NCBI GenBank assembly: GCA_938038975.1
Contig: CALHVP010000061.1
Coordinates: 22,329 to 86,328 of the forward strand
DNA length: 64,000 nucleotides
Direction: 5' to 3'
From: an uncultured Maribacter sp.
Lineage (GTDB): Bacteria; Bacteroidota; Bacteroidia; Flavobacteriales; Flavobacteriaceae
The notes under the pieces are model-generated. The model was not told the DNA's origin. It searched no databases and worked only from the letters and a program-made list of their open reading frames with translations. Of this stretch, positions 1,016 to 61,791 are shown in pieces. The translations under genes were made by a program, and so were the position numbers. Position 1 is the first letter of the stretch; every line of letters starts with the position of its first letter.

Positions 1016-1471
1016 ATGAGAAACGTTTTAAATCAAAAAGAAGGTGTTGAGCTTTTGGCGAACAACTATATTGGTCATTTAGGGTACTTATCGGGTTCTT
1101 GTCCTTACGTAGTACCTATTACCTACTATTACGATGAGGCTTCCCAAACCATAATCAGTTACTCGTCTGAAAGCTATAAAATAGAGGCTATGCGTAAAAA
1201 CCCATTGGTTTCCCTTTGTGTTGACGAGATTTACTCGGTTACCGATTGGCAATCGATATTGGTGCATGGTACTTTTGAAGAACTTTCAAGTATTAATGCA
1301 AAGCATATGTTGCGACAGTTCTCTAACGGTGTAAAAAGTATCATAAATAAGGAACCTGATAAAAACGGCCAATTCATTAGTGAATTTTCAGCGAAGCTGG
1401 AGAAGGGAAGACCACCATTGGTATTTTTTATTAGCATCAATGGAATCAGTGGTAAGAAAAGAGAATCATAA
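1016..1471 (+). CDS. Pyridoxamine 5'-phosphate oxidase-like flavin-binding protein
   Basis: GHLG...PYVVPITY...KIEAMRKNPLVSLCVD...WQSILVHG split-barrel pattern. Confidence 0.85.
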   Translation: MRNVLNQKEGVELLANNYIGHLGYLSGSCPYVVPITYYYDEASQTIISYSSESYKIEAMRKNPLVSLCVDEIYSVTDWQSILVHGTFEELSSINAKHMLRQFSNGVKSIINKEPDKNGQFISEFSAKLEKGRPPLVFFISINGISGKKRES

Positions 1472-1544
1472 TAATTTACATCAATGAATTATGTCCAAAA
1501 CACAAGACGGATCATTTTAATAAAACTTGTAAAGACCTTTCAGC

Positions 1545-3914
1545 ATGCTAATTAAAACATTTAGTCAAATAGGTATCTCGGATATTACATCTGTAGGAGG
1601 TAAAAACGCATCTCTAGGAGAAATGTACAATCAATTAACTTCTAAAGGGGTTCGTATTCCCAATGGTTTTGCGACCACGTCCACAGCCTTTTGGAAATTC
1701 TTAAAGGAAAACGACATACAAGAATCATTAGAAAATATTATATCTGGTCTTGACAGAATACATTTTGCCAACTTGAGTTTGATTGGCAAAAGGGCAAGAA
1801 ACCTTATTATAAAAAGCATCTTATCTGATTCATTTTCTAATGCAATCATCAAAGAATATGATGACTTATGTGGCGAAGATGCCATTACAGTTGCAGTGCG
1901 GAGTAGCGCTACGGCTGAAGACCTTCCAGATGCCAGTTTTGCAGGCCAACACGACACCTTTTTAAATATTTCAGGAAAAGATGCCGTGCTGGAATCAGTC
2001 AAAAAATGCTTTGCCTCGCTCTATACTGACCGTGCTATCAAGTACCGAGAGGACAAGGGATTTCTACACAAAGATATTGCGCTATCAGTAGGTATTCAGC
2101 TTATGGTCCGTTCCGATAAAAGTTGTTCTGGCGTCGGCTTTACCATTGAGCCAGAGTCCGGTTTCGAAAATGTAATCTTACTCTCTGGTGTTTGGGGCTT
2201 AGGAGAGAACATTGTGCAGGGCACAGTAAACCCCGATGAATTTTACATATTTAAGCCTAGTCTTAAAAAAAAATACTATCCCATCATTCAAAAGAAACTA
2301 GGAGACAAGAAACTGACTATGATCTATGCTTCTAAAGCGGAAAAAGAAACGACTTTTAACGAAGATACTCCTGTTATTAAACAAGAACAATATGTACTTA
2401 ATGATGACGAAATCATTACATTGGGTAGGTGGGCAGTACTCATAGAAGAACACTATGAAAAGCCTATGGATATCGAATGGGCTAAAGATGGGATTACAAA
2501 GGAGTTGTTTATTACTCAGGCACGGCCGGAAACCGTTCATCAGAATAAAAACAAAAACATTCATATTGAATATAAATTACTGGATACAGCAAAACCTTGG
2601 GTTCAAGGCAATGCGGTCGGTTCCAAAATCAAAGTAGGCAATGCGGTTCTTTTGAACTCCCCTAGCGACGCAAAAGAGTTGACTAAAGATTCCATTATCG
2701 TAACCGATACCATTACTCCGGATTGGGACCCAATGCTTAAACAAGTGGGTGGAATTATTACGAATAAGGGTGGCCGGACTAGCCATGCCGCTATCGTAGC
2801 CCGTGAACTGGGTGTGCCCGCGATTGTAGGTTGTGGAAATGCCACCACCGAATCAATAACTAATGGGGAGACGCTTACTATGTCGTGTTCTCAAGGGAAA
2901 ACGGGGTATGTATATCAAGGGAAACTACTTTTTGAAGAGAGAGAAATCGATTTTTCAGGAATACAGCTACCGAATACGGAAGCCAAATTTATTTTGGCCG
3001 ATCCCGAAAATGCCTTTCAGCTTTCTTTTTATCCGAACAACGGTGTAGGATTACTTCGTATGGAATTCATTATTACCCACAAAGTTAAAGTACACCCAAT
3101 GGCCTTAGTGAGATTCGATGCGGTCAAAGATAGAGCGACCCGGAAGGAAATCGAAATGCTCACCAAAAACTATCCTGATAAATCCTCCTATTTTGTAGAC
3201 CAACTCTCTCAAGGTATCGCTACTATAGCAGCTGCTTTTTATCCAAAGGAGGTAATTGTAAGGTTAAGTGATTTTAAAACAAACGAATATGCCAATCTTA
3301 TTGGTGGTGTCGATTTTGAGCCCAATGAAGAAAACCCTATGCTCGGTTTCAGGGGTGCATCAAGATATTATAGCGACCTATACAAAGATGGCTTTGCATT
3401 AGAATGTGCTTCTATTTTAAGGGTCCGTGAAACCATGGGACTTACCAATCTTAAAGTAATGGTACCTTTCTGTAGAACTATCAAAGAAGGTAAAAGGGTA
3501 TTGTCTGTAATGGAAGAAAATGGATTAAAACGTAGCGAAAACGGACTCGAAATATACACTATGGTCGAGATACCCAGCAATGTAATCCTGGCAGAGGAGT
3601 TTGCCGAAATTTTCGATGGATTTTCTATAGGCTCCAATGATCTGACTCAATTGACTTTAGGTATTGACAGGGATTCAGAGATTATGGGAAATCTCTTTGA
3701 TGAAAATGATGCCGCGGCCAAACGTATGGTTGCCATGGCAATCCAATCTGCAAAAAAAACCAGCACTAAAATCGGATTATGCGGACAAGCACCTAGTGAT
3801 TTTCCAGAATTTGCCAAATTCCTTGTTAAAGAAGGCATCGACAGTATTTCTTTCAATCCCGATGCATTATTGCAAGGCATCGAGAACATTAACAATGCCG
3901 AAAAAAGCCTGTAA
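1545..3914 (+). CDS. ppsA: Phosphoenolpyruvate synthase
   Basis: 789 aa; VGGKNASLGEM, AVRSSATAEDLPDASFAGQ, GGRTSHAAIVARELG phospho-His motif, FSIGSNDLTQ. Confidence 0.97.
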   Translation: MLIKTFSQIGISDITSVGGKNASLGEMYNQLTSKGVRIPNGFATTSTAFWKFLKENDIQESLENIISGLDRIHFANLSLIGKRARNLIIKSILSDSFSNAIIKEYDDLCGEDAITVAVRSSATAEDLPDASFAGQHDTFLNISGKDAVLESVKKCFASLYTDRAIKYREDKGFLHKDIALSVGIQLMVRSDKSCSGVGFTIEPESGFENVILLSGVWGLGENIVQGTVNPDEFYIFKPSLKKKYYPIIQKKLGDKKLTMIYASKAEKETTFNEDTPVIKQEQYVLNDDEIITLGRWAVLIEEHYEKPMDIEWAKDGITKELFITQARPETVHQNKNKNIHIEYKLLDTAKPWVQGNAVGSKIKVGNAVLLNSPSDAKELTKDSIIVTDTITPDWDPMLKQVGGIITNKGGRTSHAAIVARELGVPAIVGCGNATTESITNGETLTMSCSQGKTGYVYQGKLLFEEREIDFSGIQLPNTEAKFILADPENAFQLSFYPNNGVGLLRMEFIITHKVKVHPMALVRFDAVKDRATRKEIEMLTKNYPDKSSYFVDQLSQGIATIAAAFYPKEVIVRLSDFKTNEYANLIGGVDFEPNEENPMLGFRGASRYYSDLYKDGFALECASILRVRETMGLTNLKVMVPFCRTIKEGKRVLSVMEENGLKRSENGLEIYTMVEIPSNVILAEEFAEIFDGFSIGSNDLTQLTLGIDRDSEIMGNLFDENDAAAKRMVAMAIQSAKKTSTKIGLCGQAPSDFPEFAKFLVKEGIDSISFNPDALLQGIENINNAEKSL

Positions 3915-4100
3915 CTTTGAAGCTGTCGGAAAGCAGTAATCAATCGTTCTTTAGAACTCAAATTTTCTAAATATAAGAAGTAGAAACGGGATATAAAAAG
4001 TTTCAGTAGTGCTAATTTTAAGGCTAGTAATAAGGATTTTAACACTAGGCTCAACCTCATGGAACACTATCTTTTTATCCTAATTCAAAGGGTTTATTTA

Positions 4101-5368: not shown

Positions 5369-6136
5369 CTATGATTGATATCGATTAAAAAAGCTGGCTT
5401 GTAGATTTTTTCTGGCCGTCTCTAAAAGCGTTTTTACCTCCTTAACGGTACACTTTTGTATCATAGCTATTTCTTCCAGTTCAAATCGATGTTCATTAAA
5501 AAGTTGGAAAACTCTTCGCATGGGAACTGGCAAATGATAGAGTACCATATTGGTATGCCTTCTTATATTTTCGTTACCTAATTCATGATCCAATTGGTCT
5601 ATAAATTCTTTATTATTGTCTTCGATAAAAATAGGATTCAAGAGAACATCATTTTTTTGATATGAAATATCGTCAAGATCTTCTATCATAACCATATCGC
5701 CATCACCATAGGTACTAAATTTTTCTTCCATTGCATCCCACTCCGGTTTGGAGTACCTGTCTATGTCCTCAATAAACAAGCTATCGAACTCCTCCTCTAT
5801 CAGTGCATCTTCTAATAATTCATCAGCCTTTTTAAATAGCCAAGGGTGCAAATCTTGTCCGTGCATAACCTCATCAAAATGGTCATAAGCTTCAATAAAC
5901 AAATGATCAACAAAGTCATCTGCCGTATATCTTCCAATATCTAGTTTCTTATTAGTTAAAGCCGTAGCTATGTTTTTTTGAATATATCGCTTTACATCAG
6001 ACATCGCTTTAAGCAGCAAGGCGTTAAAAGCTGTGGTGTTACTCTCCTTTTTAAAACGAACTAAATCAACATAACTACTTGCTACAAAAAGATGAAACTC
6101 GCGAGGTTGTTTTTTAGAATCAATTATATCACTCAT
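5369..6136 (-). CDS. Sigma-70 region 4 domain protein (atypical ECF-like)
   Basis: C-terminal LPVPMRRVFQL...LEEIAMIQKCTVKEVKTLLETARKNL region-4 HTH; degenerate region-2-like ADDFVDHLFIEAY...LHPWLFKKA. Confidence 0.7.
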   Translation of the reverse strand: MSDIIDSKKQPREFHLFVASSYVDLVRFKKESNTTAFNALLLKAMSDVKRYIQKNIATALTNKKLDIGRYTADDFVDHLFIEAYDHFDEVMHGQDLHPWLFKKADELLEDALIEEEFDSLFIEDIDRYSKPEWDAMEEKFSTYGDGDMVMIEDLDDISYQKNDVLLNPIFIEDNNKEFIDQLDHELGNENIRRHTNMVLYHLPVPMRRVFQLFNEHRFELEEIAMIQKCTVKEVKTLLETARKNLQASFFNRYQS

Positions 6137-6189
6137 GAATAATAATTTTATTGTTTATCAAAAATGCAAATTTGTCTTTGTACACTAAA

Positions 6190-6201
6190 TGATATAGATC
6201 A
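6190..6201 (-). promoter_or_regulatory. CRP/FNR-type box TGAT-ATAG-ATCA
   Basis: CATTTTTG on minus strand at 6159-6166, 23 bp away. Confidence 0.75.
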
Positions 6202-6252
6202 GTACCTCCTTGGTAAAAAGAAAAAAGAAAAACTCATAAAAAAAGACCAAAC

Positions 6253-6264
6253 TGACCTAGGTCA
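6253..6264 (+). promoter_or_regulatory. CRP/FNR-type box TGAC-CTAG-GTCA
   Basis: Perfect palindrome; TATTTTAG at 6288-6295, 23 bp downstream. Confidence 0.85.
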
Positions 6265-6299
6265 TTTTAGACCTGATAATAGGAATGTATTTTAGCTGT

Positions 6300-7265: not shown

Positions 7266-7344
7266 TATTTAGGAATGTTTAATAGCTAAGTAGGTGAGCT
7301 CATTCCTGTTCTACTTGTTTAAAAAGCATCTTAACTCCCAAAAA

Positions 7345-7356
7345 TGACTAAGGTCA
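7345..7356 (+). promoter_or_regulatory. CRP/FNR-type box TGAC-TAAG-GTCA
   Basis: TATTTTTG at 7380-7387, 23 bp downstream. Confidence 0.85.
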
Positions 7357-7427
7357 TTTCAAACGTATTTGTTCTACTCTATTTTTGAATAGATATTTAA
7401 ATAAATCAATAACTTAAAACTATTATC

Positions 7428-7757
7428 ATGACAAACGACAGTGGAAATGTTTTACTAGCACTTTTAACAGGAGCTGCAATAGGAGCTGGAATCGGAATTT
7501 TATACGCACCTGATAAGGGAATCGAGACCCGACATAAAATCAAACAAAAGGTGGACGACACCACGCACGATTTATCAGACAGAATTTCGCATGCAAAAGA
7601 GGAACTTACGAAAACCGCAAATGAGAAAAAAGATGTCTTTGACCGTAAACTGGACGAGGCTATCTCTACCATGAGTTATAAAGCAGATGATATCATCGAA
7701 AAGCTGGAAAGCAAATTGGAAGACCTTAAAAAGAAAAATGCCCAACTCCAAAAATAG
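7428..7757 (+). CDS. YtxH-domain general stress protein
   Basis: LLTGAAIGAGIGILYAPDKGIETR motif followed by coiled coil. Confidence 0.9.
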   Translation: MTNDSGNVLLALLTGAAIGAGIGILYAPDKGIETRHKIKQKVDDTTHDLSDRISHAKEELTKTANEKKDVFDRKLDEAISTMSYKADDIIEKLESKLEDLKKKNAQLQK

Positions 7758-7762
7758 CTGAT

Positions 7763-8107
7763 ATGGCTTTTGAAGAATTCAAAAAGGACCTCATGGGTGC
7801 GGAAGCCGATATGAGGTCTTATGTGGAACATAGCGACGAATACCTGAGACTTAGAATTTTTAAAGTCGTAATGCACCATTTAACAGGTATTACACAGGTT
7901 GTGCTAATTGGTATCGGTTTCGTTTTCGCGATGCTATTCTTATCGTTCGCTGCCTGTTTGGCCTTATCCGATGAACTAAACAGTTACTTTAGTGGTTTCA
8001 TAATCGTAGGCGGCTTTTATGTAGTCTTAGGAATTATGCTGTACGTTTTTAGGGCGAAACTGAATGCTCCAATTCTTAAAAAATTCTCTAAACACTATTT
8101 CGAATGA
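7763..8107 (+). CDS. Two-TM membrane protein (holin-like superfamily)
   Basis: Two hydrophobic helices; directly follows the YtxH gene. Confidence 0.65.
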   Translation: MAFEEFKKDLMGAEADMRSYVEHSDEYLRLRIFKVVMHHLTGITQVVLIGIGFVFAMLFLSFAACLALSDELNSYFSGFIIVGGFYVVLGIMLYVFRAKLNAPILKKFSKHYFE

Positions 8108-8370: not shown

Positions 8371-9441
8371 TTATTTAAAACCCGCAACAAGCTCTAGTTC
8401 TTCTTTATCCAAAATAATAATCCTTCTACCACTATCCGTAGTAATCAAACCTTCATCCTTAAAATCTGAAAGGGTACGAATTGCCGTTTCGGTTGCTGTA
8501 CCTATCATGCCAGCAAAATCTTCACGAGGAATAGACATGCCTTGGTTTGGCTTTTCCTTGATCAGACCCTTTTCATAAAGTTCCAATAAAGCTTTTGCGG
8601 CACGCTGCCTTACCGATGCAAAGGCCATATCTACCAGATGAGCCTGTACACTAATCAAATTATTGGAAATCATGTTTATAAATTTTTGGGATACCATATG
8701 GTTTCCAAATAGTAATTTTATAAAATCGGCCTTTGGAATAGCACAAAGTTCAGCATCCTCCAAGACAACAGCATTCTCTACATAGGTTCCTGCAGCATGC
8801 AGCAAGGACAATTGACCCACAAAATCACCAGGGCCATAAAGACCTGTAACCAGTTCTTTTCCGGACTCTGTACCTTTATATGTTTTAATATTCCCACTTT
8901 CTATAAAATAAAGTGAATGGGCATTATCTCCTTCCCAAAAGATAATTTCCTTTTTTTCATAAGACCTTAGATTATGGTTTTTGGAGAGGCCCTCCAAATC
9001 TTTATATTCAGACGCCTCTTCCAAAAAAGTGTTTATACTTTCTAAATTTTTTATGATTTCTTTTTTTAAACTATCGTGCTTTTTTAAGCGACAGGCAATG
9101 GCTTCCAACAGTTCGTGCTCTTCAAATGGCTTTGTTAAATAGTCATCCGCACCCAAGTTCATCCCCATCCGCATAGCCTCTCTATCTGTTTTAGCGGTAA
9201 GAAAAATAAATGGGATGCTAGCCGTACCACTATCCTTACCTAAAACTCGTAGTACTTCGAATCCGTCCATTTGTGGCATCATTATGTCACAAATCACTAA
9301 ATCTGGTAAAAACCCTTTGGCTTTTTCAATACCAATAATACCATTCTCGGCCGTAAGCACTTGATAATTAGCTAGCGTCATTATTTCAGCTGTATTTTCT
9401 CTTACAGCTTTATTGTCTTCAATTATCAATATTTTTTTCAT
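8371..9441 (-). CDS. Response regulator: receiver domain fused to CRP/FNR cNMP-binding and HTH domains
   Basis: KKILIIEDN, ICDIMMP (phospho-Asp), DDYLTKPF; C-terminal PREDFAGMIGTATETAIRTLSDFK HTH; start may be 9447. Confidence 0.92.
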   Translation of the reverse strand: MKKILIIEDNKAVRENTAEIMTLANYQVLTAENGIIGIEKAKGFLPDLVICDIMMPQMDGFEVLRVLGKDSGTASIPFIFLTAKTDREAMRMGMNLGADDYLTKPFEEHELLEAIACRLKKHDSLKKEIIKNLESINTFLEEASEYKDLEGLSKNHNLRSYEKKEIIFWEGDNAHSLYFIESGNIKTYKGTESGKELVTGLYGPGDFVGQLSLLHAAGTYVENAVVLEDAELCAIPKADFIKLLFGNHMVSQKFINMISNNLISVQAHLVDMAFASVRQRAAKALLELYEKGLIKEKPNQGMSIPREDFAGMIGTATETAIRTLSDFKDEGLITTDSGRRIIILDKEELELVAGFK

Positions 9442-12400
9442 TTTCATGTAGATTTAAAGGAAGTTTTACGGTAAAGGTGCTTCCCTTACCTCTTTTGCTT
9501 TTAAAGCTTACCGCGCCATGCATCAATTCCGAGTATTGTTTAACAATATGTAGTCCTAGCCCCGTACCTTCAATGTTTATTGCGTTTTCAGCACGAAAAA
9601 ACCGTTCAAAAAGATTCCCTTGTTCTGCTTTGGGAATTCCCATTCCATTGTCCGTGATTTCAAAAATTATATGCTCTTGAATTTCTTTTAGTTCAAACTT
9701 AATTTCTTGGCCTGCTTCCGAATATTTGAGAGCATTAGACAAGAGGTTGACCAAGATATGGTTCAACAGTTTTGGATCTAGAAAAACAGGAATTTCCGCT
9801 TCAGTGTATTTTAATATAATGGCTTGTCCTTCTTTTTTTGTCCCTTCCATTTCATCAACTATAATTTTGCAAAACTGAATCAGCTCCAGATGCTGTGGCT
9901 TTGACTTTACTCTACCTTCTTCTAATTTGCTAAGGGAAAGAAAATCATTAAGTATAACTACTAAGTGCTTTACGTGCGTACGTATCCGTGCCACATGTTT
10001 TTCTCGCCTTTCTTCTTTACCGGGCTCGTTTTGTTTTCCAATAAGTATAGCAGAGGATAAAATAGCACTCAAGGGTGTTCGGAACTCATGGGAAGCCATC
10101 GAAATAAAGCGAGATTTTAATCCAATCAATTCCTCAGCTGCTTTTAATGTAGTAGTTAATTCTTCCCTAACATTTTTCTGTTCAGTAATGTTGTTAAAGA
10201 CAAATAACGCCCAGACTATATCATCCCCATCTGACCTTAATGGTTTAGCATTCAAAGCATAACAATCTGTCTGGAACTCTAGCTCAAAGGAAAGATTATC
10301 TCCTTTTACTGTTTTAAGTATATTTTGTTTAATACGTTTAACCTGATTTTTGGAAAAAAACGTAATGTCATCTATATGCTTTCCTTCAAAATCGGTCTTC
10401 TCTAAATTAGCCCGTTTGAGCTCCTCCCCTTCCACATACACTAATTCAAAATCGGTATTAAACACAACTATAAGTCCCTTAGGGAAATTTCTAGCGATAG
10501 CTGCAAAAAGGACTTGGCTACGCTTTGCTTTATCTTCTGCTATTTTGGTGACTTGTACTTGGTCTTCTAAACTAAGATTAGTCTGAATTAATTTTTGGAC
10601 CGTTGCTTCAATCTCTTTAGTGCGTTCCGCTACCTTGCTCTCTAATTTATCTGCATACGTTTCCAACTGCGCTTTAGTATTCTGAATTTCGGTAATATCG
10701 TTCTGAACTCCTATAAAATGGGTCAATTGCTGTTTCTCGTTATAAAGCGGAGTAATTGTGAGTTCATTCCAAAAAAGCGTACCATCTTTTCTATAGTTTC
10801 TTAGTACTACTTTGCAAGGCTTGCCGTTTTGAATAGCTATGGCCAGGGTCCTTATTCCCTCTTGATCATGGTCATCTTTTTGTAAAAAACGACAGTTTTC
10901 GCCTAAGACCTCGCTCGGTTGATATCCTGTTATAAGAGAAAAGGCCCTGTTACTATATAAAATAGGTAAATCTGGCTGCTGAGCGTCAACAATAATAACA
11001 CCATTGCCCGCAGCTTCTAAAGCCCTATTTCTAAGGTGTAATGAGCTCTGAATTGTATTGGTTTCTGTAATGTTTCGTGCAATGGACAGAACTTGATTTT
11101 TATTGAACGGCACTAATCGATATTCATAAATGACCGTATCATCGGCAACCGAAGACGCCAACTCTAATGTTGCCATTTCTTGGTTATGAATTACTTTTGA
11201 AATTATACTTTTCAGCTTTTTCCCAACTTCTTCAAAAAATAAATTAGTTATATTTTCACCCACTAGTTCCTCTTTTGAGATCCTGAAAGAGGAATCATCT
11301 GGAACATGTATTTCCAATATAGTTCCCTTTTTATCATAAATAGACACTACATCGGGCATAGCCTGTAAAATTGCCCTATTTTTCTCCTCACTCTCCCGTA
11401 ATTTCTGTTCGGCGAAAACTTGTTCCGTAACTTCTAAGCCTGAACTTATTAAGCCTGTAATATTGCCATTTTCATCTTTCAAGAGTGCGTTTCGCCATCT
11501 TATTAATTTTCTTCTGTTTCCTTTCGCAAGGACCCAATTTTCATAGATATCTGGCGGCTCTATTACTCCGCTGATAATTTGGCCAAATAACTGGGTAAGT
11601 TCTTTTTTTTCTTTTTTTGGTATACAATTATGGAACCAATTTTTTCCAATAATTTCATTTTGGGGATAACCAAGTATTTCACGACCTTTTTGATTAATGA
11701 GCTCAATCGTATGATTCTTATTGATTATCAAAAAAATTGATGCTGCCGCGTTTAAATATTGGTTTAGTATTTTTTTTTCCTTTTCTAATGCGTATTCTGT
11801 TTGTTTTAGATAGGTGATATCAGTAATTAAACCCTCCAAGAATAACAAGTATCCGTTACTATTATAAACACCTCGGCCTAATTCATTCAAATATTTGGTA
11901 TTCCCTAATTTATCTTTAACACGAAAAGAAAATTGATAGGGTTCCTTGTTATGAAGTGCCTCTTGTGTTGCATCCCAGATGTGATTCTGATCTGCCTCAT
12001 ATATGATATCCGAAAAATGTACCTTTCCTTCTAAAAATTCATGAGGACTAAAACCTGTTATGGTCTCACAACCATCGCTAATATATTTCATAGTCCAATC
12101 TCTGTCATTACTGCAACGATATACAATACCAGAAACATTATCAACTAGGGTACGAAGTTTCCTATCACTTTCAAAAACCGAAATGTCTGCAGGTTTACAA
12201 AAAACAATGCCTAAAGTGCTATCTTGAATAACTGTTGACCCAAATCTTATGTCAACCATAAATCTTCCACCATCTTTTCGCAATCCGTAAATCTGTAATG
12301 ATTCTGAAACACGACTTTGCATTAAATCCTTTATGAGCTCATTTGCAAATAATTTATATATATTCTTTTTGACAAGTTCATTATTTTCATAACCAAACAT

Positions 12401-51081: not shown

Positions 51082-51093
51082 TGACCAATATCA
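51082..51093 (+). promoter_or_regulatory. CRP/FNR-type box TGAC-CAAT-ATCA
   Basis: TATTTTTA at 51117-51124, 23 bp downstream. Confidence 0.8.
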
Positions 51094-51147
51094 TAGTAAT
51101 TGGAGCTATTCACTTCTATTTTTATAAAAACATTAAATGGAAGACCG

Positions 51148-51999: not shown

Positions 52000-52031
52000 T
52001 AAGCAACACTATTGTCATCCAAAGTATAGAA

Positions 52032-52043
52032 TGATTAAAATCA
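52032..52043 (+). promoter_or_regulatory. CRP/FNR-type box TGAT-TAAA-ATCA
   Basis: TATTTTTG at 52067-52074, 23 bp downstream. Confidence 0.85.
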
Positions 52044-52096
52044 TAGGGTATGAATTGTTATCGAAATATTTTTGAATAGTCATAAAAACAAAGTAC

Positions 52097-52942: not shown

Positions 52943-52959
52943 CTTTTAAGCTTGTCAAT

Positions 52960-53814
52960 ATGAAAAAAATACTCCTACCTACCGATTTCTCAGACAATGC
53001 CTGGAACGCTATCTGCTATGCACAACTCTTATTTAAAGAAGAGCAATGTGACTTTCATATTCTACATACCTATACCCCTACCTTTTATCGATTGGATTAC
53101 ATGATGGGTGGACCCACCTATAGCGCTATCCCGGACATGGGTGTAGAAGTTGCGCAGGCCGGTTTAGAAAAAACACTCATAGATATTAAAAATAACTTTG
53201 ATAATCCAAAGCACTCGTTTCAGACCTTTTCTACATTCAATACGCCAGTCAATGAAATCATTGAACGTACCACATCTAAAAAATTCGACCTCATCATCAT
53301 GGGCACTCAAGGGGCTACAGGGGCAAAAGAAATTTTTCTGGGATCACATACCGTTCATGTTATACGAAGATCTACTACTCCTGTCTTAGCCGTTCCACAA
53401 GGGTACGCGTTTAAAGAATTAAAGTCCGTTGTTTTTTCTACTGACTACTTAGACACCTATCAAGGAAAAAACTTAAAAATCCTGAAGTTCCTTGTTAAGT
53501 TGCACCATGCGAAATTAACCGTTTTGCATATCAAGGAGGAATATGAGTTGTCTGATGAGCAAAAAGATAATAAACAAAGCCTTAACGCTTTGTTTAAAAA
53601 CCTAAATCCTGATATCATTGAGGAAAGAGGAAAGTTGATGCCAAATGCGATTCAAGAATACATAGAAGAACATAAATCCGAACTCTTAATAATGATGAAT
53701 AAAAAGCATAGCTTTTTTGAACGTATCCTGAACAAACAAAACCTGGACACCATAGGTTATCATACCAAAATACCGCTGTTGGTACTCCCTGAAACAGCTG
53801 AAATCAAAAAATAG
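52960..53814 (+). CDS. Universal stress protein
   Basis: ILLPTDFS, LIIMGTQGATG. Confidence 0.95.
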   Translation: MKKILLPTDFSDNAWNAICYAQLLFKEEQCDFHILHTYTPTFYRLDYMMGGPTYSAIPDMGVEVAQAGLEKTLIDIKNNFDNPKHSFQTFSTFNTPVNEIIERTTSKKFDLIIMGTQGATGAKEIFLGSHTVHVIRRSTTPVLAVPQGYAFKELKSVVFSTDYLDTYQGKNLKILKFLVKLHHAKLTVLHIKEEYELSDEQKDNKQSLNALFKNLNPDIIEERGKLMPNAIQEYIEEHKSELLIMMNKKHSFFERILNKQNLDTIGYHTKIPLLVLPETAEIKK

Positions 53815-53820
53815 AATATC

Positions 53821-54663
53821 ATGAAAAATATTGTACTCCCTACGGATTTCTCAGACAATGCCTGGAACGCCATTTTTACCGTTCTAAAATTATTTAAAGA
53901 TCTGGAATGTACATTTTATTTACTGCACGCCTATGAGCCTAATACCCTAAATATGTTAGGTCAAAAGGGCCAGCAACGATTAGGAGTTATTTACGATTCC
54001 CTGTCAGAACATTCTAGACAAGAGCTAGGTAAAGTTATGGCCTACTTGAAAAAAAAATGTCATAATCCAAAACATAGCTTTGAAACCATCTCAGCGTCAG
54101 ACCCCTTAGAGAATGCGCTAGCACACCTTGTGGAGCAAAAAGATGCTGATTTGATATGTATGGGTACTCAGGGAGCTACTAGTGCCAAACAAGTTTTCAT
54201 GGGCACTAATACGGTTAAAGTGCTAAAAAAAATAAAGGACTACCCTATTTTGGTGGTACCTTCAGACCATGATTTTAAGGCATTAAAATCGCTCGCATTC
54301 CCTACGGATTTTTCTAAAAAATATGAACAACACCAATTACAACCTATGACCGAGTTGGTGTCGCTTTGGAAAACCAACATACAAATTGTACATGTAGCCG
54401 TAGAATTTGAGATGAACGACCAACAAATTTTGAATCAAAAGAGATTAAAAAAATACTTAAATGGTTTTGATGTTATGTTCTACAATATAGATTTTGAGGA
54501 CAATATTGCCTACACCCTCGAAAAGTTTATTGTGAATACAGAAATAGATATGATGGCCTTAATACAGTACCAACATAGTTTTTGGGAAAAGATAATTAGA
54601 GAATCTGTCATAAAAAAGATGACATTCCATACCAAAGTACCTTTACTGATTCTACCCGAATAA
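53821..54663 (+). CDS. Universal stress protein
   Basis: IVLPTDFS, LICMGTQG. Confidence 0.95.
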   Translation: MKNIVLPTDFSDNAWNAIFTVLKLFKDLECTFYLLHAYEPNTLNMLGQKGQQRLGVIYDSLSEHSRQELGKVMAYLKKKCHNPKHSFETISASDPLENALAHLVEQKDADLICMGTQGATSAKQVFMGTNTVKVLKKIKDYPILVVPSDHDFKALKSLAFPTDFSKKYEQHQLQPMTELVSLWKTNIQIVHVAVEFEMNDQQILNQKRLKKYLNGFDVMFYNIDFEDNIAYTLEKFIVNTEIDMMALIQYQHSFWEKIIRESVIKKMTFHTKVPLLILPE

Positions 54664-54695
54664 GTACTATTTTAATACTCTTTATTTTAAAAGTG

Positions 54696-55556
54696 ATGAT
54701 CTCAAAACATATTCTTTTACCGACAGATTTTTCATCTAATGCCCGTAATGCAATCGATTATGGAATCACTCTTTTTAGCAAGGAGGAATGTGTTTTCTAT
54801 GTATTGAACGCTTTCGAAGTTGGAGCATCGGGTCTAAGCAGCACAATGGGAAAAGCAAAAAATACACGGTTGTACAGGGCAATAAAAGAAGAATCCAAAC
54901 GAAATGTTACATCCCTATTGGAAGAATTAAACACAAACAGTAATAATCCATTGCACAAATTCGAAGGGTTAAGCTTATCAGATTCCTTGTTGCACGCCGT
55001 TGGAAAAACGATAATAGATTATAGCATTAGTTATGTTTTTATGGGCTCCAAAGGCTCTTCAGCTATAAAAGAGGTTTTTATAGGGAGCAGTACGGTAAGC
55101 GTAATAAAACATATTGATTTCTGTCGTTTAGTAGTAGTACCAGAAAACTACAGTTTTCAAATTCCGAAACAGATAGCCTTTGCTACCAATTTTGAGCATG
55201 TGTATTCAAAAATTGAATTGGTCCCACTATTTAATTTAGCCAGTTTATGGGATTCAGAAATTGTCATAGTACATGTTCATAAAGGTAAAGAACTTACACA
55301 ACAACAGAAAACGTGTAAAAATATATTGGTAGAACGGCTTGATGGTATATGCCTAAGTTTTATAGAGGTACCAGGAGCATCAAAAGTATCGGACACTATC
55401 CAATTATTTACCTCGGAGCATACGGATGTAGGCATGATTGCCATGGTCAATTATTGGCACAGCTTTTTTAATAAATTGACTACTGAAAATGTAATTAACA
55501 GGGTTGCATTTCAAACAAAAGTTCCGTTTTTAGTTTTTCCACTTATAGACCCGTAA
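54696..55556 (+). CDS. Universal stress protein
   Basis: ILLPTDFS, VFMGSKG. Confidence 0.95.
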   Translation: MISKHILLPTDFSSNARNAIDYGITLFSKEECVFYVLNAFEVGASGLSSTMGKAKNTRLYRAIKEESKRNVTSLLEELNTNSNNPLHKFEGLSLSDSLLHAVGKTIIDYSISYVFMGSKGSSAIKEVFIGSSTVSVIKHIDFCRLVVVPENYSFQIPKQIAFATNFEHVYSKIELVPLFNLASLWDSEIVIVHVHKGKELTQQQKTCKNILVERLDGICLSFIEVPGASKVSDTIQLFTSEHTDVGMIAMVNYWHSFFNKLTTENVINRVAFQTKVPFLVFPLIDP

Positions 55557-55846: not shown

Positions 55847-55894
55847 ATTTTCTGGTTTTAATGTTAAAATAAGGCACGAATTCTGATTTTAAAA

Positions 55895-55906
55895 TGACGT
55901 AGGTCA
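55895..55906. promoter_or_regulatory. Bidirectional CRP/FNR-type box TGAC-GTAG-GTCA
   Basis: TATTTTAA (minus, 55864-55871) and TTTATTTG (plus, 55930-55937), each 23 bp away. Confidence 0.8.
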
Positions 55907-55961
55907 GTTGAAACTGATTTTATGTTTTTTTTATTTGTACTCGGGTAAAAAATAAAAAGAA

Positions 55962-56933
55962 ATGGCAATAGAAGTAGTTCTAAGCATAGATATTGGAGGT
56001 AGTCTTACCAAGGTTGGCCTTGTAACTAGAGATGGGAATATTTTGGATAAGGTTTTGTTTAAAACCAACGCACAAAGACCATTTCCAACCTTTATGAAGA
56101 AACTACAATTAGAGGTGGAACACTTACAATCAAAATTTAATTCCGAGATAAAAATATGTGCCATTGGTGTTGGTGCACCAAATGCAAACCCTTTTACTGG
56201 CCTAATTGAAAACCCTCCAAACCTTAATTGGGGCCAGGCTACACCAATCCAAAGAATTCTTAATCAAACTTATAAATTATCGGTTACACTCGCTAACGAT
56301 GCGAATGCGGCTGCCTTAGGAGAAATGCTTTTTGGTTCCGCCAAGGGCATGAAAAACTTTGTTGTACTAACGCTAGGAACCGGACTAGGAAGCGGTATTG
56401 TAGTAGATGGGCAATTGTTAATTGGAGAACACGGTACTGCAGGAGAAATAGGCCATGTAAACGTAGACCCAAAGGGCAGAATGTGCAATTGTGGATTACA
56501 AGGCTGTTTAGAAACCTATGCCTCAGTAACGGGAATCAAACGAACAGTATTTGAGTTGATGGCGGATATGTATGAGAATTCCCCCTTAAAAAGTCTTAGT
56601 TTTGAAGAGATGACAGGTATCGAAATTTCAGATGCTGCCTTAACCGGGGATAAATTAGCCTTGGCTGCTTTTGAAAAAACAGGTAAAATCTTAGGAAGTA
56701 AAATAGCAGATACTATAGCACATATAGATCCAGAGGCAATCATCCTTTCGGGAGGATTGAGCAAAGCCGGAAATGTGCTCCTAAATCCTGTAAAAATGCA
56801 TATGGAGCAGTATCTCTTTAATGCTTACAAAGGCAAAGTAAAGGTCTTATTATCAACCTCCACAAGCGCCGACGCCGTATTAGGACCCGCTGCTATGGCT
56901 TGGCTAGAATTGAGAAATATTCATATTGGATGA
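55962..56933 (+). CDS. ROK family sugar kinase (glucokinase-like)
   Basis: IDIGGS, NDANAAALGE, TLGTGLGSG, GEIGH, CNCGLQGCLE. Confidence 0.93.
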   Translation: MAIEVVLSIDIGGSLTKVGLVTRDGNILDKVLFKTNAQRPFPTFMKKLQLEVEHLQSKFNSEIKICAIGVGAPNANPFTGLIENPPNLNWGQATPIQRILNQTYKLSVTLANDANAAALGEMLFGSAKGMKNFVVLTLGTGLGSGIVVDGQLLIGEHGTAGEIGHVNVDPKGRMCNCGLQGCLETYASVTGIKRTVFELMADMYENSPLKSLSFEEMTGIEISDAALTGDKLALAAFEKTGKILGSKIADTIAHIDPEAIILSGGLSKAGNVLLNPVKMHMEQYLFNAYKGKVKVLLSTSTSADAVLGPAAMAWLELRNIHIG

Positions 56934-56942
56934 CAATCATCA
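56931..56942 (+). promoter_or_regulatory. CRP/FNR-type box TGAC-AATC-ATCA overlapping the ROK stop codon
   Basis: TATTTTTA at 56966-56973, 23 bp downstream. Confidence 0.8.
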
Positions 56943-56992
56943 TTTCAATGGTATTTCAATGCCCTTATTTTTAGGTGTAAATCATATACACT

Positions 56993-57832
56993 ATGAAAAA
57001 CATACTCATACCTACAGATTTTTCCGATAATGCATGGAACGCCATAATCTACGCTATTGAATTGTTCAACAGAAAAGAATGTATTTTTTATTTAGTTAAC
57101 GTGCTACCCATTACTTCGTATACCGGTGGCGAAGCAACTGTATATGTAGCCCCTGAAATACTTCAAGAAGGTGTTTTAAAGGAAAATAGGGAGAAGTTGA
57201 AAAAATTATTAGGGGAAATAGAACGATTAACCGATAATCCAAAACATACGTTTGTAAGCGCTGCCTTATACGGGTTTTTTACCGACAAAATAAAACAAGA
57301 GGTAGCGGACAAAAATATTGATTTAATTATCATGGGAACCAAAGGGGCATCTGGCATAAAGGCTGTTTCTATGGGGAGTAATACTGGTAACGTAATCACA
57401 AAAGTATCTTGTGCGGTGTTGGCAATTCCTGCGGGTGCACGTTATAGCGAACCGAAGGCAATAGGTTTTCCAACGGACTTTCAATTAGGCTATACTGTTA
57501 ACGTATTGAAACAGCTTAAAGAGGTAGTGATGCTACATTCATCGGCTTTAAAATGTCTACATGTTTCAACCAAAAAGGATGAACTGACGATGCTACAATT
57601 AAAAAACCGTGATTTTTTAAGGGACTATTTTAAAAACACGGAATGTTCTTTTGGCACCCTATCAGAGAAAAAATTAGATGTAGCCGTTCAACATTTTGTT
57701 GAAAGCCAAAATTTGGATATGATCGTTATGGTAGCCAAAAATTTGAATTTCTTGGAACGTATTCTTTTTAGGCCTAGGGTAGAAAAAATTAGTTACCATA
57801 CCACCGTCCCATTCTTAGTGTTACATGAGTAA
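56993..57832 (+). CDS. Universal stress protein
   Basis: ILIPTDFS, LIIMGTKGASG. Confidence 0.95.
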   Translation: MKNILIPTDFSDNAWNAIIYAIELFNRKECIFYLVNVLPITSYTGGEATVYVAPEILQEGVLKENREKLKKLLGEIERLTDNPKHTFVSAALYGFFTDKIKQEVADKNIDLIIMGTKGASGIKAVSMGSNTGNVITKVSCAVLAIPAGARYSEPKAIGFPTDFQLGYTVNVLKQLKEVVMLHSSALKCLHVSTKKDELTMLQLKNRDFLRDYFKNTECSFGTLSEKKLDVAVQHFVESQNLDMIVMVAKNLNFLERILFRPRVEKISYHTTVPFLVLHE

Positions 57833-58367: not shown

Positions 58368-58667
58368 TCAAGAATGCGATTTTACGATTTGTACAATAGC
58401 ATCCTTTTGCACAACCCCCGACTGTCGCCAAAGCTGTTTCCCATTCTTGAACAAGAGCATGGTGGGTACTCCCCTAACTTGATATTTTGCGGCTAAGGAT
58501 TGGTTTTTATCCACGTCAATCTTTACAATCTTAACGCTTTCTCCCATTTCATCCTTTACCTGTTTTAAAATCGGCACCAACATTTTACAAGGGCCGCACC
58601 AATCGGCATAAAAATCGACCAAAACCGGTGTTTCTGAATCTATTATTTTAGAAAAACTACTTTTCAT
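58368..58667 (-). CDS. trxA: Thioredoxin
   Basis: VLVDFYADWCGPCK, VRGVPT. Confidence 0.95.
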   Translation of the reverse strand: MKSSFSKIIDSETPVLVDFYADWCGPCKMLVPILKQVKDEMGESVKIVKIDVDKNQSLAAKYQVRGVPTMLLFKNGKQLWRQSGVVQKDAIVQIVKSHS

Positions 58668-58716
58668 CCATTTCAATTTAAAGATTAAAAATACAAAAAA
58701 CAAGCACTGGGCTAAC

Positions 58717-58728
58717 TGACCAATATCA
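58717..58728. promoter_or_regulatory. Bidirectional CRP/FNR-type box TGAC-CAAT-ATCA
   Basis: TATTTTTA (minus, 58686-58693) and TAGTTTTA (plus, 58752-58759), each 23 bp away. Confidence 0.85.
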
Positions 58729-58783
58729 TAGCTTTTAGATTTCTTCTATACTAGTTTTAACTTATAATCAAAACTATGAGGCC

Positions 58784-59620
58784 ATGAAACGTATTCTTTT
58801 ACCTACTGATTTTTCGGACAATTCTATTAAAGCCATAAGGTATACGCTGTTGACTTATAGAGATGTGAAGTGTACTTTTTATTTATTAAACACCTATACC
58901 CCAACGGTCTACCAGACGGAGTATCTTATGGGGAGTCCCGGCCATATTGGTTTGGGAGACATACTTCAAGAAAATAGTCTAACCCAACTAGAAAAATTAA
59001 AAAAACGTTTGAAAAAGCAACATAAGAACGCAAACCACACTATAATCGTTCGTTCTGCCTTTAATACCTTACTAGGCGAAATATCCCATACTGTAGAAGC
59101 TGAACATATAGATTTGATTGTAATGGGAACTACAGGAGCCACAGGCGCAAAGGAAATTCTTTTTGGTACAAATACGGTACATGTAATTAAAAAGGCAAAA
59201 TGTCCCGTTATAGCGGTTCCTCCAAATTTTGAATACGAGGCACCAAAGGAAATCCTGTTTCCAACAGACTACGAAGTTGAATACGAAAAGAAAAAAATGG
59301 CTCCGCTAATGGCAATTATACAGCAGCATAAATCAAGAATAAATGTGCTTCATGTTCGTGCCGGTTATGACTTAAATAGTATCCAAGAAAAGCATAAATC
59401 ACAACTTGAAAAATTATTGGGAAACAGCGCGCTGTTTCACGAAGTACCCGATAACGGAATCATAGATGCAGTCAATGCCTTTCAGGTCAAGCAAAAAATA
59501 AACCTTTTGGTTATGGTACAGAACAAACACACCTTTATGGAACGCCTGTTTATTGAGCCCATTATCAAAAAAATAGGTTTTCACGTTACCGTACCCTTTA
59601 TGGTACTACCACAACTTTAA
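58784..59620 (+). CDS. Universal stress protein
   Basis: ILLPTDFS, LIVMGTTGATG. Confidence 0.95.
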   Translation: MKRILLPTDFSDNSIKAIRYTLLTYRDVKCTFYLLNTYTPTVYQTEYLMGSPGHIGLGDILQENSLTQLEKLKKRLKKQHKNANHTIIVRSAFNTLLGEISHTVEAEHIDLIVMGTTGATGAKEILFGTNTVHVIKKAKCPVIAVPPNFEYEAPKEILFPTDYEVEYEKKKMAPLMAIIQQHKSRINVLHVRAGYDLNSIQEKHKSQLEKLLGNSALFHEVPDNGIIDAVNAFQVKQKINLLVMVQNKHTFMERLFIEPIIKKIGFHVTVPFMVLPQL

Positions 59621-59639
59621 AGAATTAAAGAATTAAAAA

Positions 59640-60491
59640 ATGAAAAATATATTAGTCGCTACAGACTTTTCGAATAATGCCTATAGTGCGCTGCACTATG
59701 CCACACAATTATTGGCATCAAAACCCTGCACTTTTTATATCTTAAATGTATTCGATAAGCTTACACCCATACTTGGTAATAAAGCAAAATTATTTAACAA
59801 TAAGCACCGGTTAACAACACTACAAAAAGAATCAAAAGAAGGTCTAGAAATTACCTCGCATAGAATTGTCTTGGATACAGATAACACGAAACATCTGTTT
59901 AAAACAATTTCTAAAAAAGGAAACTTAGCGGATACTATTGCTAAGACCATTGAGGAAAAGAAAATAGATTTAGTGGTCATGGGCAATAAAGGACTTAACG
60001 AAACAGCTGATATTTTCTTTGGCAGCAATACCATAAAAACGATAAACCATATAAACAAATGTCCAGTGCTAGCTATTCCAGGGGAAACGGACTTTAAAAC
60101 GCCCAAAGAAATAGCATTTATTACCGACTTAAAAAGAGACTGTACCAAAGACTCGATAGCACCTCTACTGTTTTTAGCCTCCCTTACCAAGGCATCGGTA
60201 AGCGTAATGCACATAACGGAAGAAAAGATATTAAACAAGGAACAAGAATCTTATAGAAAACTATTGGCACTGTGCCTAAAGGATATTGACCACAGCTTTC
60301 ATTGGGTCCAAAAATTTGAGGATAAGGCAAAAGTTATTGAAGTATTTCTAAAAAAACAGCAAATAGATATGTATGCAATGGTGAACCATAAACGGAATCT
60401 GTTTGAAAAATTGACTCGGGAGCCTGTCATAAAAGATGTGAGTATGTATGCGGACATTCCTTTTCTCATCCTTCCGCATCAAGAAGTGTAA
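59640..60491 (+). CDS. Universal stress protein
   Basis: ILVATDFS, LVVMGNKG. Confidence 0.95.
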   Translation: MKNILVATDFSNNAYSALHYATQLLASKPCTFYILNVFDKLTPILGNKAKLFNNKHRLTTLQKESKEGLEITSHRIVLDTDNTKHLFKTISKKGNLADTIAKTIEEKKIDLVVMGNKGLNETADIFFGSNTIKTINHINKCPVLAIPGETDFKTPKEIAFITDLKRDCTKDSIAPLLFLASLTKASVSVMHITEEKILNKEQESYRKLLALCLKDIDHSFHWVQKFEDKAKVIEVFLKKQQIDMYAMVNHKRNLFEKLTREPVIKDVSMYADIPFLILPHQEV

Positions 60492-60525
60492 AAAATGCAA
60501 CCTAATATCCCAAAACAATGTAATT

Positions 60526-61365
60526 ATGGACAAAAGAATATTAATTCCAACGGATTTTTCAAAAAATGCCCTACATGCAGTGCGCTATGGACTTGATCTT
60601 TATGAAAAATTAAATTGTGAATTCTACTTTTTAAACGTTTTCCAAGGAAATCGTTATAGCACAAATGGCCTTAATATCCCAGAGCCTGGAAGCCCAGCAT
60701 ACGAAACCAAAAAGAAGAAATCCGAGGAAAATTTTGTAAAGCTATTGGACATGTTAGAACTACACCATGACAACCCAAAGCATTCTTACTATACAATTTC
60801 CACGTTCAATTTTTTATCGGAGGCCATTAAGCAAACCATAGCAGAAAAAGATATCGAACTCGTAATTATGGGTACAAGAGGTGCTACGGCAAATCGCGAA
60901 ATAATTTTTGGTGGTAACACTGTAAATGCAATGGAGAAAATACGAGAATGCCCAGTACTTGCAATCCCACCAGATACTCGGTTTTCAACACCTAAGGAAA
61001 TTGTTTTTCCAACAAATTATAAAACAGCTTTTAAACGAAAAGAATTAAGCTACCTGATAGAAATTGCGATGATGCACAAAAGTGCAATTAAAGTACTAAA
61101 CATAACAAAAAAAGCAGATTTAACAGCGATACAACAAAACAACAAGCGTTTGTTGGGTGCTATCTTGGAAACTGTTGAACATAGTTTTCATACACTAAGC
61201 CACAAGGATATATCCGATGGGATAACCGCCTTTGTAGAAAGTAGGGATAGTGATATGATTGCATTTATAAATAGTAAACATTTTTTCTTCGGTAGCGTAT
61301 TTTCTAAACCTTTGGTCAAGGAAATTGGGTATGATGCTACCGTTCCTATTTTGGCTTTACACTAA
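60526..61365 (+). CDS. Universal stress protein
   Basis: MDKRILIPTDFS, LVIMGTRG. Confidence 0.95.
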   Translation: MDKRILIPTDFSKNALHAVRYGLDLYEKLNCEFYFLNVFQGNRYSTNGLNIPEPGSPAYETKKKKSEENFVKLLDMLELHHDNPKHSYYTISTFNFLSEAIKQTIAEKDIELVIMGTRGATANREIIFGGNTVNAMEKIRECPVLAIPPDTRFSTPKEIVFPTNYKTAFKRKELSYLIEIAMMHKSAIKVLNITKKADLTAIQQNNKRLLGAILETVEHSFHTLSHKDISDGITAFVESRDSDMIAFINSKHFFFGSVFSKPLVKEIGYDATVPILALH

Positions 61366-61377
61366 AAACAGAAAACT

Positions 61378-61791
61378 ATGAAACGTATTGGAATTTGGAT
61401 GGATAAAAAAAAAGCACAAATTATGCGACTCCATGAGGAAGAAGAAAAATTTGAGATACTTTTCTCAAATCTGGACTTTTTGAAACCTACAGGTGGGTCA
61501 CGGACCAGATTGGCAAAATGGGGACCACAGGATGTTGTTCATGATAGTAAATACCTAGCAAAGGAAAAACAACAATTAAAAACGTATTTCAACAACTTGG
61601 CCGATGCAATTGGCGATGCTGATGCCATAGCGCTGTTTGGCCCTACGGATACCAATCAAAAGTTTAAAAAAGATATAGAAAGAAACCATAAAGCTTTAAC
61701 AAAGAAATTAAAGGCTATAACTAAATCGGATAGCATGACGAAAAATCAAGTAAAGGCATTAGTTCGAGACTATTTTAGACATTTAAGATGA
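61378..61791 (+). CDS. Hypothetical protein, host-attachment/baeRF (eRF1-like) superfamily candidate
   Basis: IGIWMD..KA, YFNNLADAI.DADAIALFGP, MTKNQVKALVRDYF. Confidence 0.55.
   Translation: MKRIGIWMDKKKAQIMRLHEEEEKFEILFSNLDFLKPTGGSRTRLAKWGPQDVVHDSKYLAKEKQQLKTYFNNLADAIGDADAIALFGPTDTNQKFKKDIERNHKALTKKLKAITKSDSMTKNQVKALVRDYFRHLR

Follow-up and report, generated by a model that had tools for sequence, protein, structure and literature searches.

How a marine flavobacterium might organise its response to oxygen loss is the question raised by a 64,000-nucleotide stretch of DNA (hereafter the window) from an uncultured Maribacter sp. (assembly GCA_938038975.1, contig CALHVP010000061.1, positions 22,329 to 86,328; source genome of 3.29 Mb in 279 contigs, 85% complete), in which genes for Hsp20, a P-type ATPase, PfkB, ribosome hibernation and universal stress proteins (USPs) are gathered behind copies of one palindromic box. 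Flavobacteriaceae rank among the main degraders of algal organic matter and encounter low oxygen in biofilms and on particles, and no described oxygen-sensing regulon for this family was found in the literature searched. The preliminary description of the sequence had proposed a clustered hypoxia or dormancy programme, similar in cargo to the DosR regulon of Mycobacterium tuberculosis and driven by fusions of a receiver domain (REC) to a CRP/FNR-type regulator instead of a NarL-type DosR. We favour, as reasonably probable, a reading in which the clustered stress, ribosome-hibernation and carbon-metabolism genes constitute a low-oxygen survival programme controlled through a histidine kinase and its fusion regulator (HK2 and REC-CRP2); a second hybrid and the core FNR are likely to read this box as well.

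A common box at a fixed distance from the promoter

An unbiased spaced-palindrome scan of the window ranked ATGA-N6-TCAT first (15 observed against 2.7 expected), and the refined box, MTGAY-N4-RTCAK, occurs 24 times against 0.90 in shuffled sequences, an excess that is partly circular because the box form was refined on the same window. The spacing of the -7 promoter element provides a check independent of this refinement: among the 116 flanks of the 58 intergenic boxes of the whole island, TAnnTTTG (at most one mismatch) lies exactly 22 bp from the box in 50, and at each of the other spacings from 10 to 44 bp in 0-6. The same spacing recurs in 45 of 88 flanks at cbb3 oxidase loci and in 106 of 248 flanks in 20 loci of the family, over a near-flat background. 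The Bacteroidota -7 element is placed at -12 to -5 (accessible part of PMC9723704). Combined with the 22-bp spacing, this position therefore puts the box centre near -41.5. Class II activators of the CRP/FNR type bind at this position. A number of boxes are flanked by -7 elements on either side and serve divergent genes. All gene classes named in the preliminary description (PNPOx-like flavoprotein, Hsp20, P-type ATPase, PfkB, M50-CBS protease, HPF and USPs) were recovered in the window with Pfam and NCBIfam models, and for each of them a box stands immediately upstream or at the start of the run of same-strand genes it belongs to, so that the boxed operons described there are borne out.

The box is almost certainly a functional activator site. 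Across 151 genomes of the family, the combined pattern of box and promoter gave 2332 sites against 70 for the reversed pattern; read as a promoter code (box, 22 bp, -7 element), it allows the regulon to be predicted, with next to no background, in any genome of the family. Raw box counts compared with the reversed pattern gave no separation between genomes that have REC-CRP and those that do not (p 0.05-0.8); that control was judged poor, and a wrong-spacer control, then the box-plus-promoter pattern, were used instead.

Low oxygen very probably induces the box. In Flavobacterium psychrophilum, the mapped ccoI and ccoS promoters carry it 22 bp before the -7 element, and oxygen limitation raises both genes about 30-fold (ccoI from log2 8.35/8.62 to 13.59/13.71, ccoS from 9.84/10.14 to 14.96/14.94), the divergent Crp/Fnr gene, with the box over its own promoter, falling from 10.96/11.75 to 9.57/10.52 (PMC9723704, supplement file 3; start site taken as base 51 of the 61-base window given there, as inferred from the -7 position). 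This evidence of induction comes from the cbb3 promoters of F. psychrophilum only and bears on the box, not on the island. Together with a FixL-like sensor and boxes at the cbb3 promoters of the present genome, it sustains the low-oxygen link that had been proposed.

Two kinase and fusion pairs and a core FNR

The window encodes two REC-cNMP-HTH_Crp fusions, REC-CRP1 and REC-CRP2, each preceded by a PAS histidine kinase (HK1 and HK2, respectively), and a third candidate regulator, a stand-alone FNR-like gene, lies, likewise boxed, with the cbb3 oxidase genes on another contig (C147). The recognition helix of this FNR, GTATESCIR, has the motif ATExxIR in common with those of the fusions (Table 1), and a quick tree placed the three proteins in separate old clades, the branching order of which was not separated. 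The FNR-like protein has a CxxC and a central Cys and is a putative Fe-S binder, judging from its sequence; the REC-CRP proteins have no N-terminal Cys cluster and 0-5 Cys in 38 homologues, and the Cys pattern of an Fe-S FNR was not found in them.

The N-terminal PAS domain of HK2 has FixL as its best PDB match, followed by DosP, and retains a His and an Arg that we take to be the haem ligand and the distal residue. HK2 is accordingly a predicted haem-PAS oxygen-sensor kinase. Among 32 kinases adjoining a REC-CRP gene, drawn from 40 chosen loci, 25 keep the His and 19 both residues. HK1 carries a full LOV motif with the photoactive Cys and finds its best PDB matches among LOV proteins; no FixL-type His was found in its first PAS domain. 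Both window kinases have PAS domains, with no GAF match shown by Pfam. The fusion was found in 71 of 150 genomes of the family and FNR in 94, and at full length the fusion occurs in 27 of 200 genomes of the phylum, spread over 9 families; in loci from other families, cbb3 genes lie within 10 kb of it in 6 of 20.

When oxygen falls, deoxy-haem HK2 would autophosphorylate and pass its phosphate to the receiver Asp of REC-CRP2, whose dimer would bind MTGAY-N4-RTCAK near -41.5, where a -33 element would be, and recruit sigmaA polymerase to the TAnnTTTG element. HK2 and REC-CRP2 would represent FixL-FixJ-FixK condensed into two proteins, LOV-containing HK1 would supply a second input via REC-CRP1, and the stand-alone FNR would mainly serve the cbb3 promoters. 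As to the cargo, ribosomes would be silenced by HPF, a Balon-like protein and a baeRF domain, proteins held by Hsp20, USPs, FtsH and M50, and substrate-level metabolism kept going by PfkB, PpsA, glycogen phosphorylase and a 2-hydroxyacid dehydrogenase. We rate slightly above even the chance that deletion impairs anoxic survival. In the comparison with FixL-FixJ-FixK, for which the abstract of the FixK2 study was used, the likenesses are a FixL-type haem-PAS domain with His and Arg (at the sequence level), an FNR-type box at -41.5 and cbb3 genes (fixNOQP, fixGHIS) among the targets; the present system differs in that the receiver is fused to the CRP/FNR module, without separate NarL-type FixJ and FixK, that the kinase is soluble and that a second, paralogous pair has a LOV domain.

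The kinase and REC-CRP pair was also seen on six Bacteroidota plasmid records, including the Runella plasmid NZ_CP030856.1, where the upstream box reads TTGAT-N4-GTCAA, so that the outer base varies by family. Two more Crp-family proteins of the island (38365-38997 in the window and L006:11969-12628) have helices of the SRVVISR type and, by helix, are not box candidates. On contig C212, a boxed CheB-CheR-PAS fusion is followed by a PAS kinase and a lone receiver resembling that of REC-CRP (L005:12890-18186).

Which regulator reads the box

The presence of each regulator was compared with site numbers in 128 genomes of the family at least 90% complete, with the provisos that some of these genomes had served to tune the site pattern, that kin are not independent and that absence means no match to one query. 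The median number of box-plus-promoter sites was 27 with both regulators (n=37), 15 with REC-CRP only (n=30), 9 with FNR only (n=49) and 0 with neither (range 0-2, n=12). At least four sites are kept in 29 of the 30 fusion-bearing genomes without FNR match and in 0 of the 12 with neither, and genomes with at least two fusions have a median of 43 (n=9), which fits added inputs on one regulon. In genomes without FNR match, boxes persist upstream of the cbb3 genes at 4/4 informative loci (a fifth locus being without its promoter region), and no fnr gene was seen beside these genes. A CRP-domain search of five genomes lacking both regulators found nothing, though the search had no positive control. 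Since boxes occur with the fusion only and with FNR only, either regulator type can accompany the box, and the present strain has both. The REC-CRP fusions are credible box readers and, from sequence comparison, probably contribute in this strain. The stronger proposal, that they are the only drivers, is not supported: the C147 FNR has the same helix and boxes occur in FNR-only genomes, so that a test by REC-CRP deletion would be confounded.

Several observations weigh against control through HK2 and REC-CRP2. Among FNR-only genomes, 44/49 have at least 4 sites, with up to 38, and FNR alone can therefore run a large regulon; the likely reader in F. psychrophilum is itself FNR, so that the induction described above supports the box and not the hybrids. 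Of five FNR-negative genomes checked, one encodes a divergent, Cys-bearing Crp protein (L117), and two carry a further Crp type whose helix reads ETVIR. Immediately behind REC-CRP2, the USP gene is broken and the box ahead of it carries a mismatch, and two other DNA runs have no indel listed at the frame break; in favour of this control, a perfect box follows the REC-CRP2 orthologue in all of the best-scoring 29 relatives (29/29). Finally, position 6 of the half-site is C or G in 44% of island half-sites, as in 44% at REC-CRP1 loci, against 10% at REC-CRP2 loci and 3% at FNR/cbb3 loci. The pattern hints at a partial division of labour with a large REC-CRP1 role and, since HK1 has a LOV domain and showed no FixL-type His, a good part of the island may respond to another signal.

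These observations feed two alternatives. That the C147 FNR in effect activates the entire island, the hybrids being minor or acting on their own neighbours only, would agree with its helix type, with FNR-only genomes rich in sites and with 20 hand-picked genomes without the fusion, in which the box stands at the fnr/ccoI promoter in 19/20 and before ccoS/ccoNO in all 18/18 covered; but the higher median with hybrids and no FNR match, and the difference between island and FNR-locus half-sites, make it very unlikely. An island that is mainly general-stress or light-linked and run by HK1 and REC-CRP1, with oxygen control by HK2 and FNR confined to the USP run and cbb3, is suggested by position 6, by the LOV motif and by cargo (YtxH, holin-X, BON, a LigD primase domain, a sigma-like protein) that we assume to be general-stress genes. 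We hold this to be unlikely, since the LOV motif is found in only 4/7 REC-CRP1-type kinases, 2/7 keep the FixL-type His, the core box does not differ from that of the oxygen-induced cbb3 promoters and site numbers rise with additional fusions.

A broader scheme, speculative and rather doubtful, is that haem-PAS (O2), LOV (blue light or flavin redox) and FNR converge on one box via the two fusions and FNR, the inner base tuning which regulator wins. If true, marine flavobacteria would possess a dormancy island gated by both light and oxygen, and a single mobile pool of dormancy genes would have come under DosR, Anr/FixK and REC-CRP switches in three different phyla. With the promoter code and three candidate regulators, a family-wide oxygen response can be tested directly.

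Extent and clustering of the island

The boxed region runs well past both ends of the window. Of the 70 intergenic boxes in the whole genome, 45 are on C61, the contig of the window (8-115 kb), 13 on C212 and 3 on C147; under the strict box-plus-promoter pattern, the 61 sites are distributed over C61 (38), C212 (15), C147 (4, at the cbb3 locus), C123 (2), C171 (1) and C217 (1), so that C61 and C212 hold 53/61, with 23 within the window. C123 has sequence in common with the end of C61. If C61 and C212 belong to one island, it spans at least 150 kb. USPs follow the same distribution, with 14/17 of the genome's matches on these two contigs. A limit on box coverage is the segment at 19.9-32.7 kb of the window, with zero boxes: these 13 kb (19900-32700) break up the island with an RND efflux set, upp and unknown exported proteins, and GC content is higher at 26-30 kb.

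Outside the window, 114 proteins of the boxed region were scanned. Hsp20, PfkB and the P-type ATPase each have a second copy there, and the region further encodes a baeRF7/Balon-like protein, a pair of BON proteins, dodecin, a beta-CASP nuclease and FtsH, as well as more PNPOx-like proteins, a split Rv2004c-like pair, a PRTase, hydrolases and glycogen phosphorylase. C61 also carries a boxed protein of 1416 aa in which a glycogen synthase-like domain is fused to an alpha-glucan phosphorylase (L004:5378-9625).

Conservation across Flavobacteriaceae, which had been put forward as a check, was confirmed for the box in many genomes; clustering is common, not universal: one relative (G042) has 27/42 sites within 60 kb, another (G048) several smaller clusters, and in a third (G035) the sites are scattered. 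This last genome has a row of five near-identical box-plus-promoter units (G035:C1:559528-591760), which suggests that a boxed gene family is repeated there. The names of homologues indicate marine Flavobacteriaceae such as Maribacter and Arenibacter, and the DNA runs containing the window include several marine or algal metagenomes; the RNA runs X19 and X20 gave scattered short contigs only.

Relation to known low-oxygen regulons

The concept itself was not new. In the accessible part of PMC3721108, the lxa locus of Burkholderia cenocepacia is a 50-gene low-oxygen cluster with six USPs, an alpha-crystallin, a phosphofructokinase and a cation ATPase, a TGA-N6-TCA box at 17 intergenic points and proposed Crp/Fnr regulators; its overlap with DosR is stated by the authors, and its deletion lowers anoxic survival. 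Survival without oxygen is abolished by Anr deletions in a different strain of B. cenocepacia (accessible part of PMC9104464). The Maribacter island resembles lxa in clustering, in USPs, alpha-crystallin/Hsp20, phosphofructokinase and cation ATPase, and in the box: among the features that would mark an lxa-type system, clustered multiple USPs, Hsp20, PfkB and cation ATPase, TGA-N6-TCA at many intergenic sites and an activator position in promoters were found. Unlike lxa, it belongs to another phylum, has a -7 promoter type and an outer box base A/C rather than T, is likely read by receiver-CRP fusions with their own kinases plus FNR, would extend over 150 kb or more with C61 and C212 as a single island, has USPs that appear locally expanded, and is known from sequence alone.

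For DosR, the cargo was compared with the M. tuberculosis Rv gene list and, at the sequence level, with a Rhodococcus DevR island as proxy. The likeness in cargo that had been claimed was found, clustered and commonly boxed, and is partial, with 0/5 genome matches of nitroreductases on island contigs. A search for WS/DGAT, which gave no match in any control genome, carries no information on this class. The classes in common are Hsp20, type II P-ATPase, PfkB, M50-CBS, PNPOx-like, USPs, HPF, Balon-like, Rv2004c-like, PRTase and hydrolase, and a haem kinase is the likely sensor on both sides. The Streptomyces regulator OsdR likewise controls a clustered DosR-like gene set (accessible part of PMC5069765). 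The island differs in having no NarL-type regulator, GAF kinase or OsdR-type box, in its short form of HPF and in a cbb3 oxidase among the boxed set. NarL-type proteins were absent among the island ORFs (open reading frames) scanned, the best genome match of a true DevR homologue lying off-island at 30%, and the OsdR consensus, with up to 3 mismatches, gave 0 matches; CRP/FNR-type control, as first suggested, is supported. Judged by its genes and promoters, the island falls outside DosR membership on regulator, kinase and box but appears to work like lxa.

The foreign islands were reached via the best plasmid matches of PfkB, and one of these four neighbourhoods (Methylocystis) is without cargo cluster. 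On the Rhodococcus linear plasmid pDK1 (NZ_CP118328.1), a DevR/GAF-kinase pair is accompanied by roughly 70 kb of DosR-like cargo; the DevR homologue of the Rhodococcus island scored 328 bits. Burkholderia and Paraburkholderia loci have TTGAY-N4-RTCAA boxes together with BON, beta-CASP, PfkB and PpsA. Among foreign ORFs with a match in the Maribacter genome, the best match is on the island for 7/28 from Rhodococcus and 10/33 from Betaproteobacteria, the island representing 170/3046 ORFs, three of these best matches being PfkB by construction and one Rhodococcus ORF being counted twice in overlapping loci. Most of the foreign-matched island proteins have no off-island paralogue.

A true homologue of the DosR regulon, inherited or transferred as a block and given another regulator later, might account for the subfamilies common with the DevR-bearing Rhodococcus plasmid island (PfkB, PpsA, the Rv2004c-like pair, Hsp20, alpha/beta hydrolase, PNPOx, DUF4010). 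It is hardly credible: identities are 23-53% with no common gene order seen, the closest foreign partner varies by gene (PpsA, 50% with Paraburkholderia and 34% with Rhodococcus), foreign USPs mostly miss those of the island, themselves 21-38% identical to each other, and the island GC content is close to the genome's. The cargo fits a mosaic of an old exchangeable gene pool, locally expanded USPs and a phylum-specific switch.

Already published is thus the concept of a clustered, DosR-overlapping, FNR-type-boxed low-oxygen regulon; not found published are haem-PAS and LOV kinases paired with receiver-CRP/FNR fusions. No paper was found on the flavobacterial regulon, the fusion or its wiring to kinases, most subscription papers lying outside the search, and a term search of PMC3590769 returned no mention of receiver fusions; a single alphaproteobacterial paper came up, and domain censuses of response regulators may list a REC-Crp architecture. 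The island adds a third phylum to the DosR/lxa pattern and offers a harmless model for the role of USP, Hsp20, PfkB and Balon cargo.

A putative ribosome-binding domain

The possible baeRF-like protein of the preliminary description is a 137-aa ORF at the end of the last USP run, with no Pfam match at E<=0.001, no NCBIfam family and, in an Atlas search, only unnamed Bacteroidota clusters, one of them auto-named 'translational machinery'. Its structure model (pLDDT 74) has the release-factor/Balon fold: it aligns best to the middle domain of aeRF1/Pelota/Balon, all top 13 structural matches are of this group, and the comparison with the Rv2629 chain (Z 12.2, root-mean-square deviation 2.4, 116 aligned residues) ties with Pelota. 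We predict from this model a stand-alone baeRF-like middle domain, a putative ribosome binder. Stand-alone baeRF1 core domains have been described (accessible part of PMC6514570). The window protein models as the middle domain common to baeRF1/Balon factors and is without both flanking domains. The closer Rv2629 counterpart lies outside the window; on C212, Balon is matched by a boxed, full-length protein of baeRF family 7. Genes for Balon are known to neighbour those for RaiA, Hsp20 and OsmY (accessible part of PMC10901736).

Features of the window

Features are collected in Table 1. Between 46216 and 61365, 10 USP genes are intact and one is broken. The YtxH-like and holin-X-like proteins are presumably general-stress-type cargo.

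Table 1. Genes and boxes along the window, from a Pfam scan of 63 window ORFs plus NCBIfam (positions within the window)
Feature	Position	Strand	Remarks
Box ATGACCTACATCAG	893..906		-7 partner on minus strand, serves ORF 296-805
Box before PNPOx-ppsA	950..963		TAGCTTTG 22 bp downstream
PNPOx-like flavoprotein (Pyridox_ox_2)	1016..1471	+	Pfam
PEP synthase PpsA	1545..3914	+	Pfam; also in Rhodococcus DosR-type and Paraburkholderia islands
Sigma70/ECF-like protein, 255 aa, boxed (6189)	5369..6136	-	NCBIfam 42.5 bits, cut-off 42.9
Two boxes, 6189-6202 and 6252-6265	6189..6265		
Box before YtxH-like and holin-X-like genes	7344..7357		
YtxH-like and holin-X-like membrane proteins	7428..8107	+	Pfam
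REC-CRP1: receiver, cNMP-like, Crp HTH	8371..9447	-	Pfam; helix GTATETAIR
HK1: multi-PAS kinase with LOV domain	9419..12520	-	GENCRFLQ at residue 540
Two boxes: 12916 (minus, towards HK1 operon), 12955 (plus, patatin)	12916..12968		
Hsp20	14755..15219	-	Pfam
Bidirectional box (Hsp20 / P-type ATPase)	15291..15304		-7 element either side
Type IIA-like P-type ATPase	15351..17852	+	Best model TIGR01522 (type IIA), below its cut-off
Box before CDP-alcohol phosphatidyltransferase / metallophosphoesterase	19841..19854		
Two boxes: 32746 (DUF6799), 32918 (molybdo-oxidoreductase operon)	32746..32931		
Box before 232-aa membrane protein	36500..36513		
Box before cytochrome c/Tll0287-like gene	38310..38323		No strict -7 partner
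M50-CBS site-2 protease	39002..40087	-	Pfam
Bidirectional box (M50-CBS / PfkB)	40136..40149		
PfkB, phosphofructokinase-2 type	40210..41175	+	Best specific model 6-phosphofructokinase II, below its cut-off
Box before zinc-ribbon protein	42229..42242		No strict -7 partner
Box	45284..45297		Minus-strand -7 partner
Box between DUF2267 and HPF-USP	45835..45848		
Short (103 aa) HPF/YfiA hibernation factor	45903..46214	+	Pfam, NCBIfam
USP	46216..47046	+	Pfam
Box at HK2	47530..47543		23 bp before HK2 start, 54 bp before divergent 133-aa gene
HK2: N-terminal PAS most FixL-like	47567..49087	+	His66 and Arg86 retained
REC-CRP2: receiver, cNMP-like, Crp HTH	49084..50136	+	Pfam; helix GIATESLIR
One-mismatch box with -7 partner, then broken USP gene	50167..51063	+	No usual start codon; frame break in A run near 50540
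Boxes 51081 and 52031, five USP genes	51081..55556	+	
Box 55894, ROK kinase, box 56930, USP	55894..57832	+	
Thioredoxin and bidirectional box 58716	58368..58729	-	
Three USP genes	58784..61365	+	
Stand-alone aeRF1/Balon-type middle domain (baeRF-like, predicted)	61378..61791	+	Structure model
MscS channel and ATP-cone/Mrr protein	61830..63606	+	Run continues outside window into beta-CASP ribonuclease

The sigma70/ECF-like protein adjoins REC-CRP1 in several relatives and could form a second regulatory tier. Helical proteins of 130-165 aa without Pfam match (L003:2386-3390, L003:17249-17716, L005:10952-11341, L006:3493-3900) belong to a family with at least five occurrences in the island, mostly boxed. 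A second, off-island HPF gene (L010:4304-4603, contig C97) has an exact box 108 bp upstream, without strict -7 partner. Directly outside the left edge of the island lies a protein with a PycTM (Pycsar effector) domain (L001:6656-7255).

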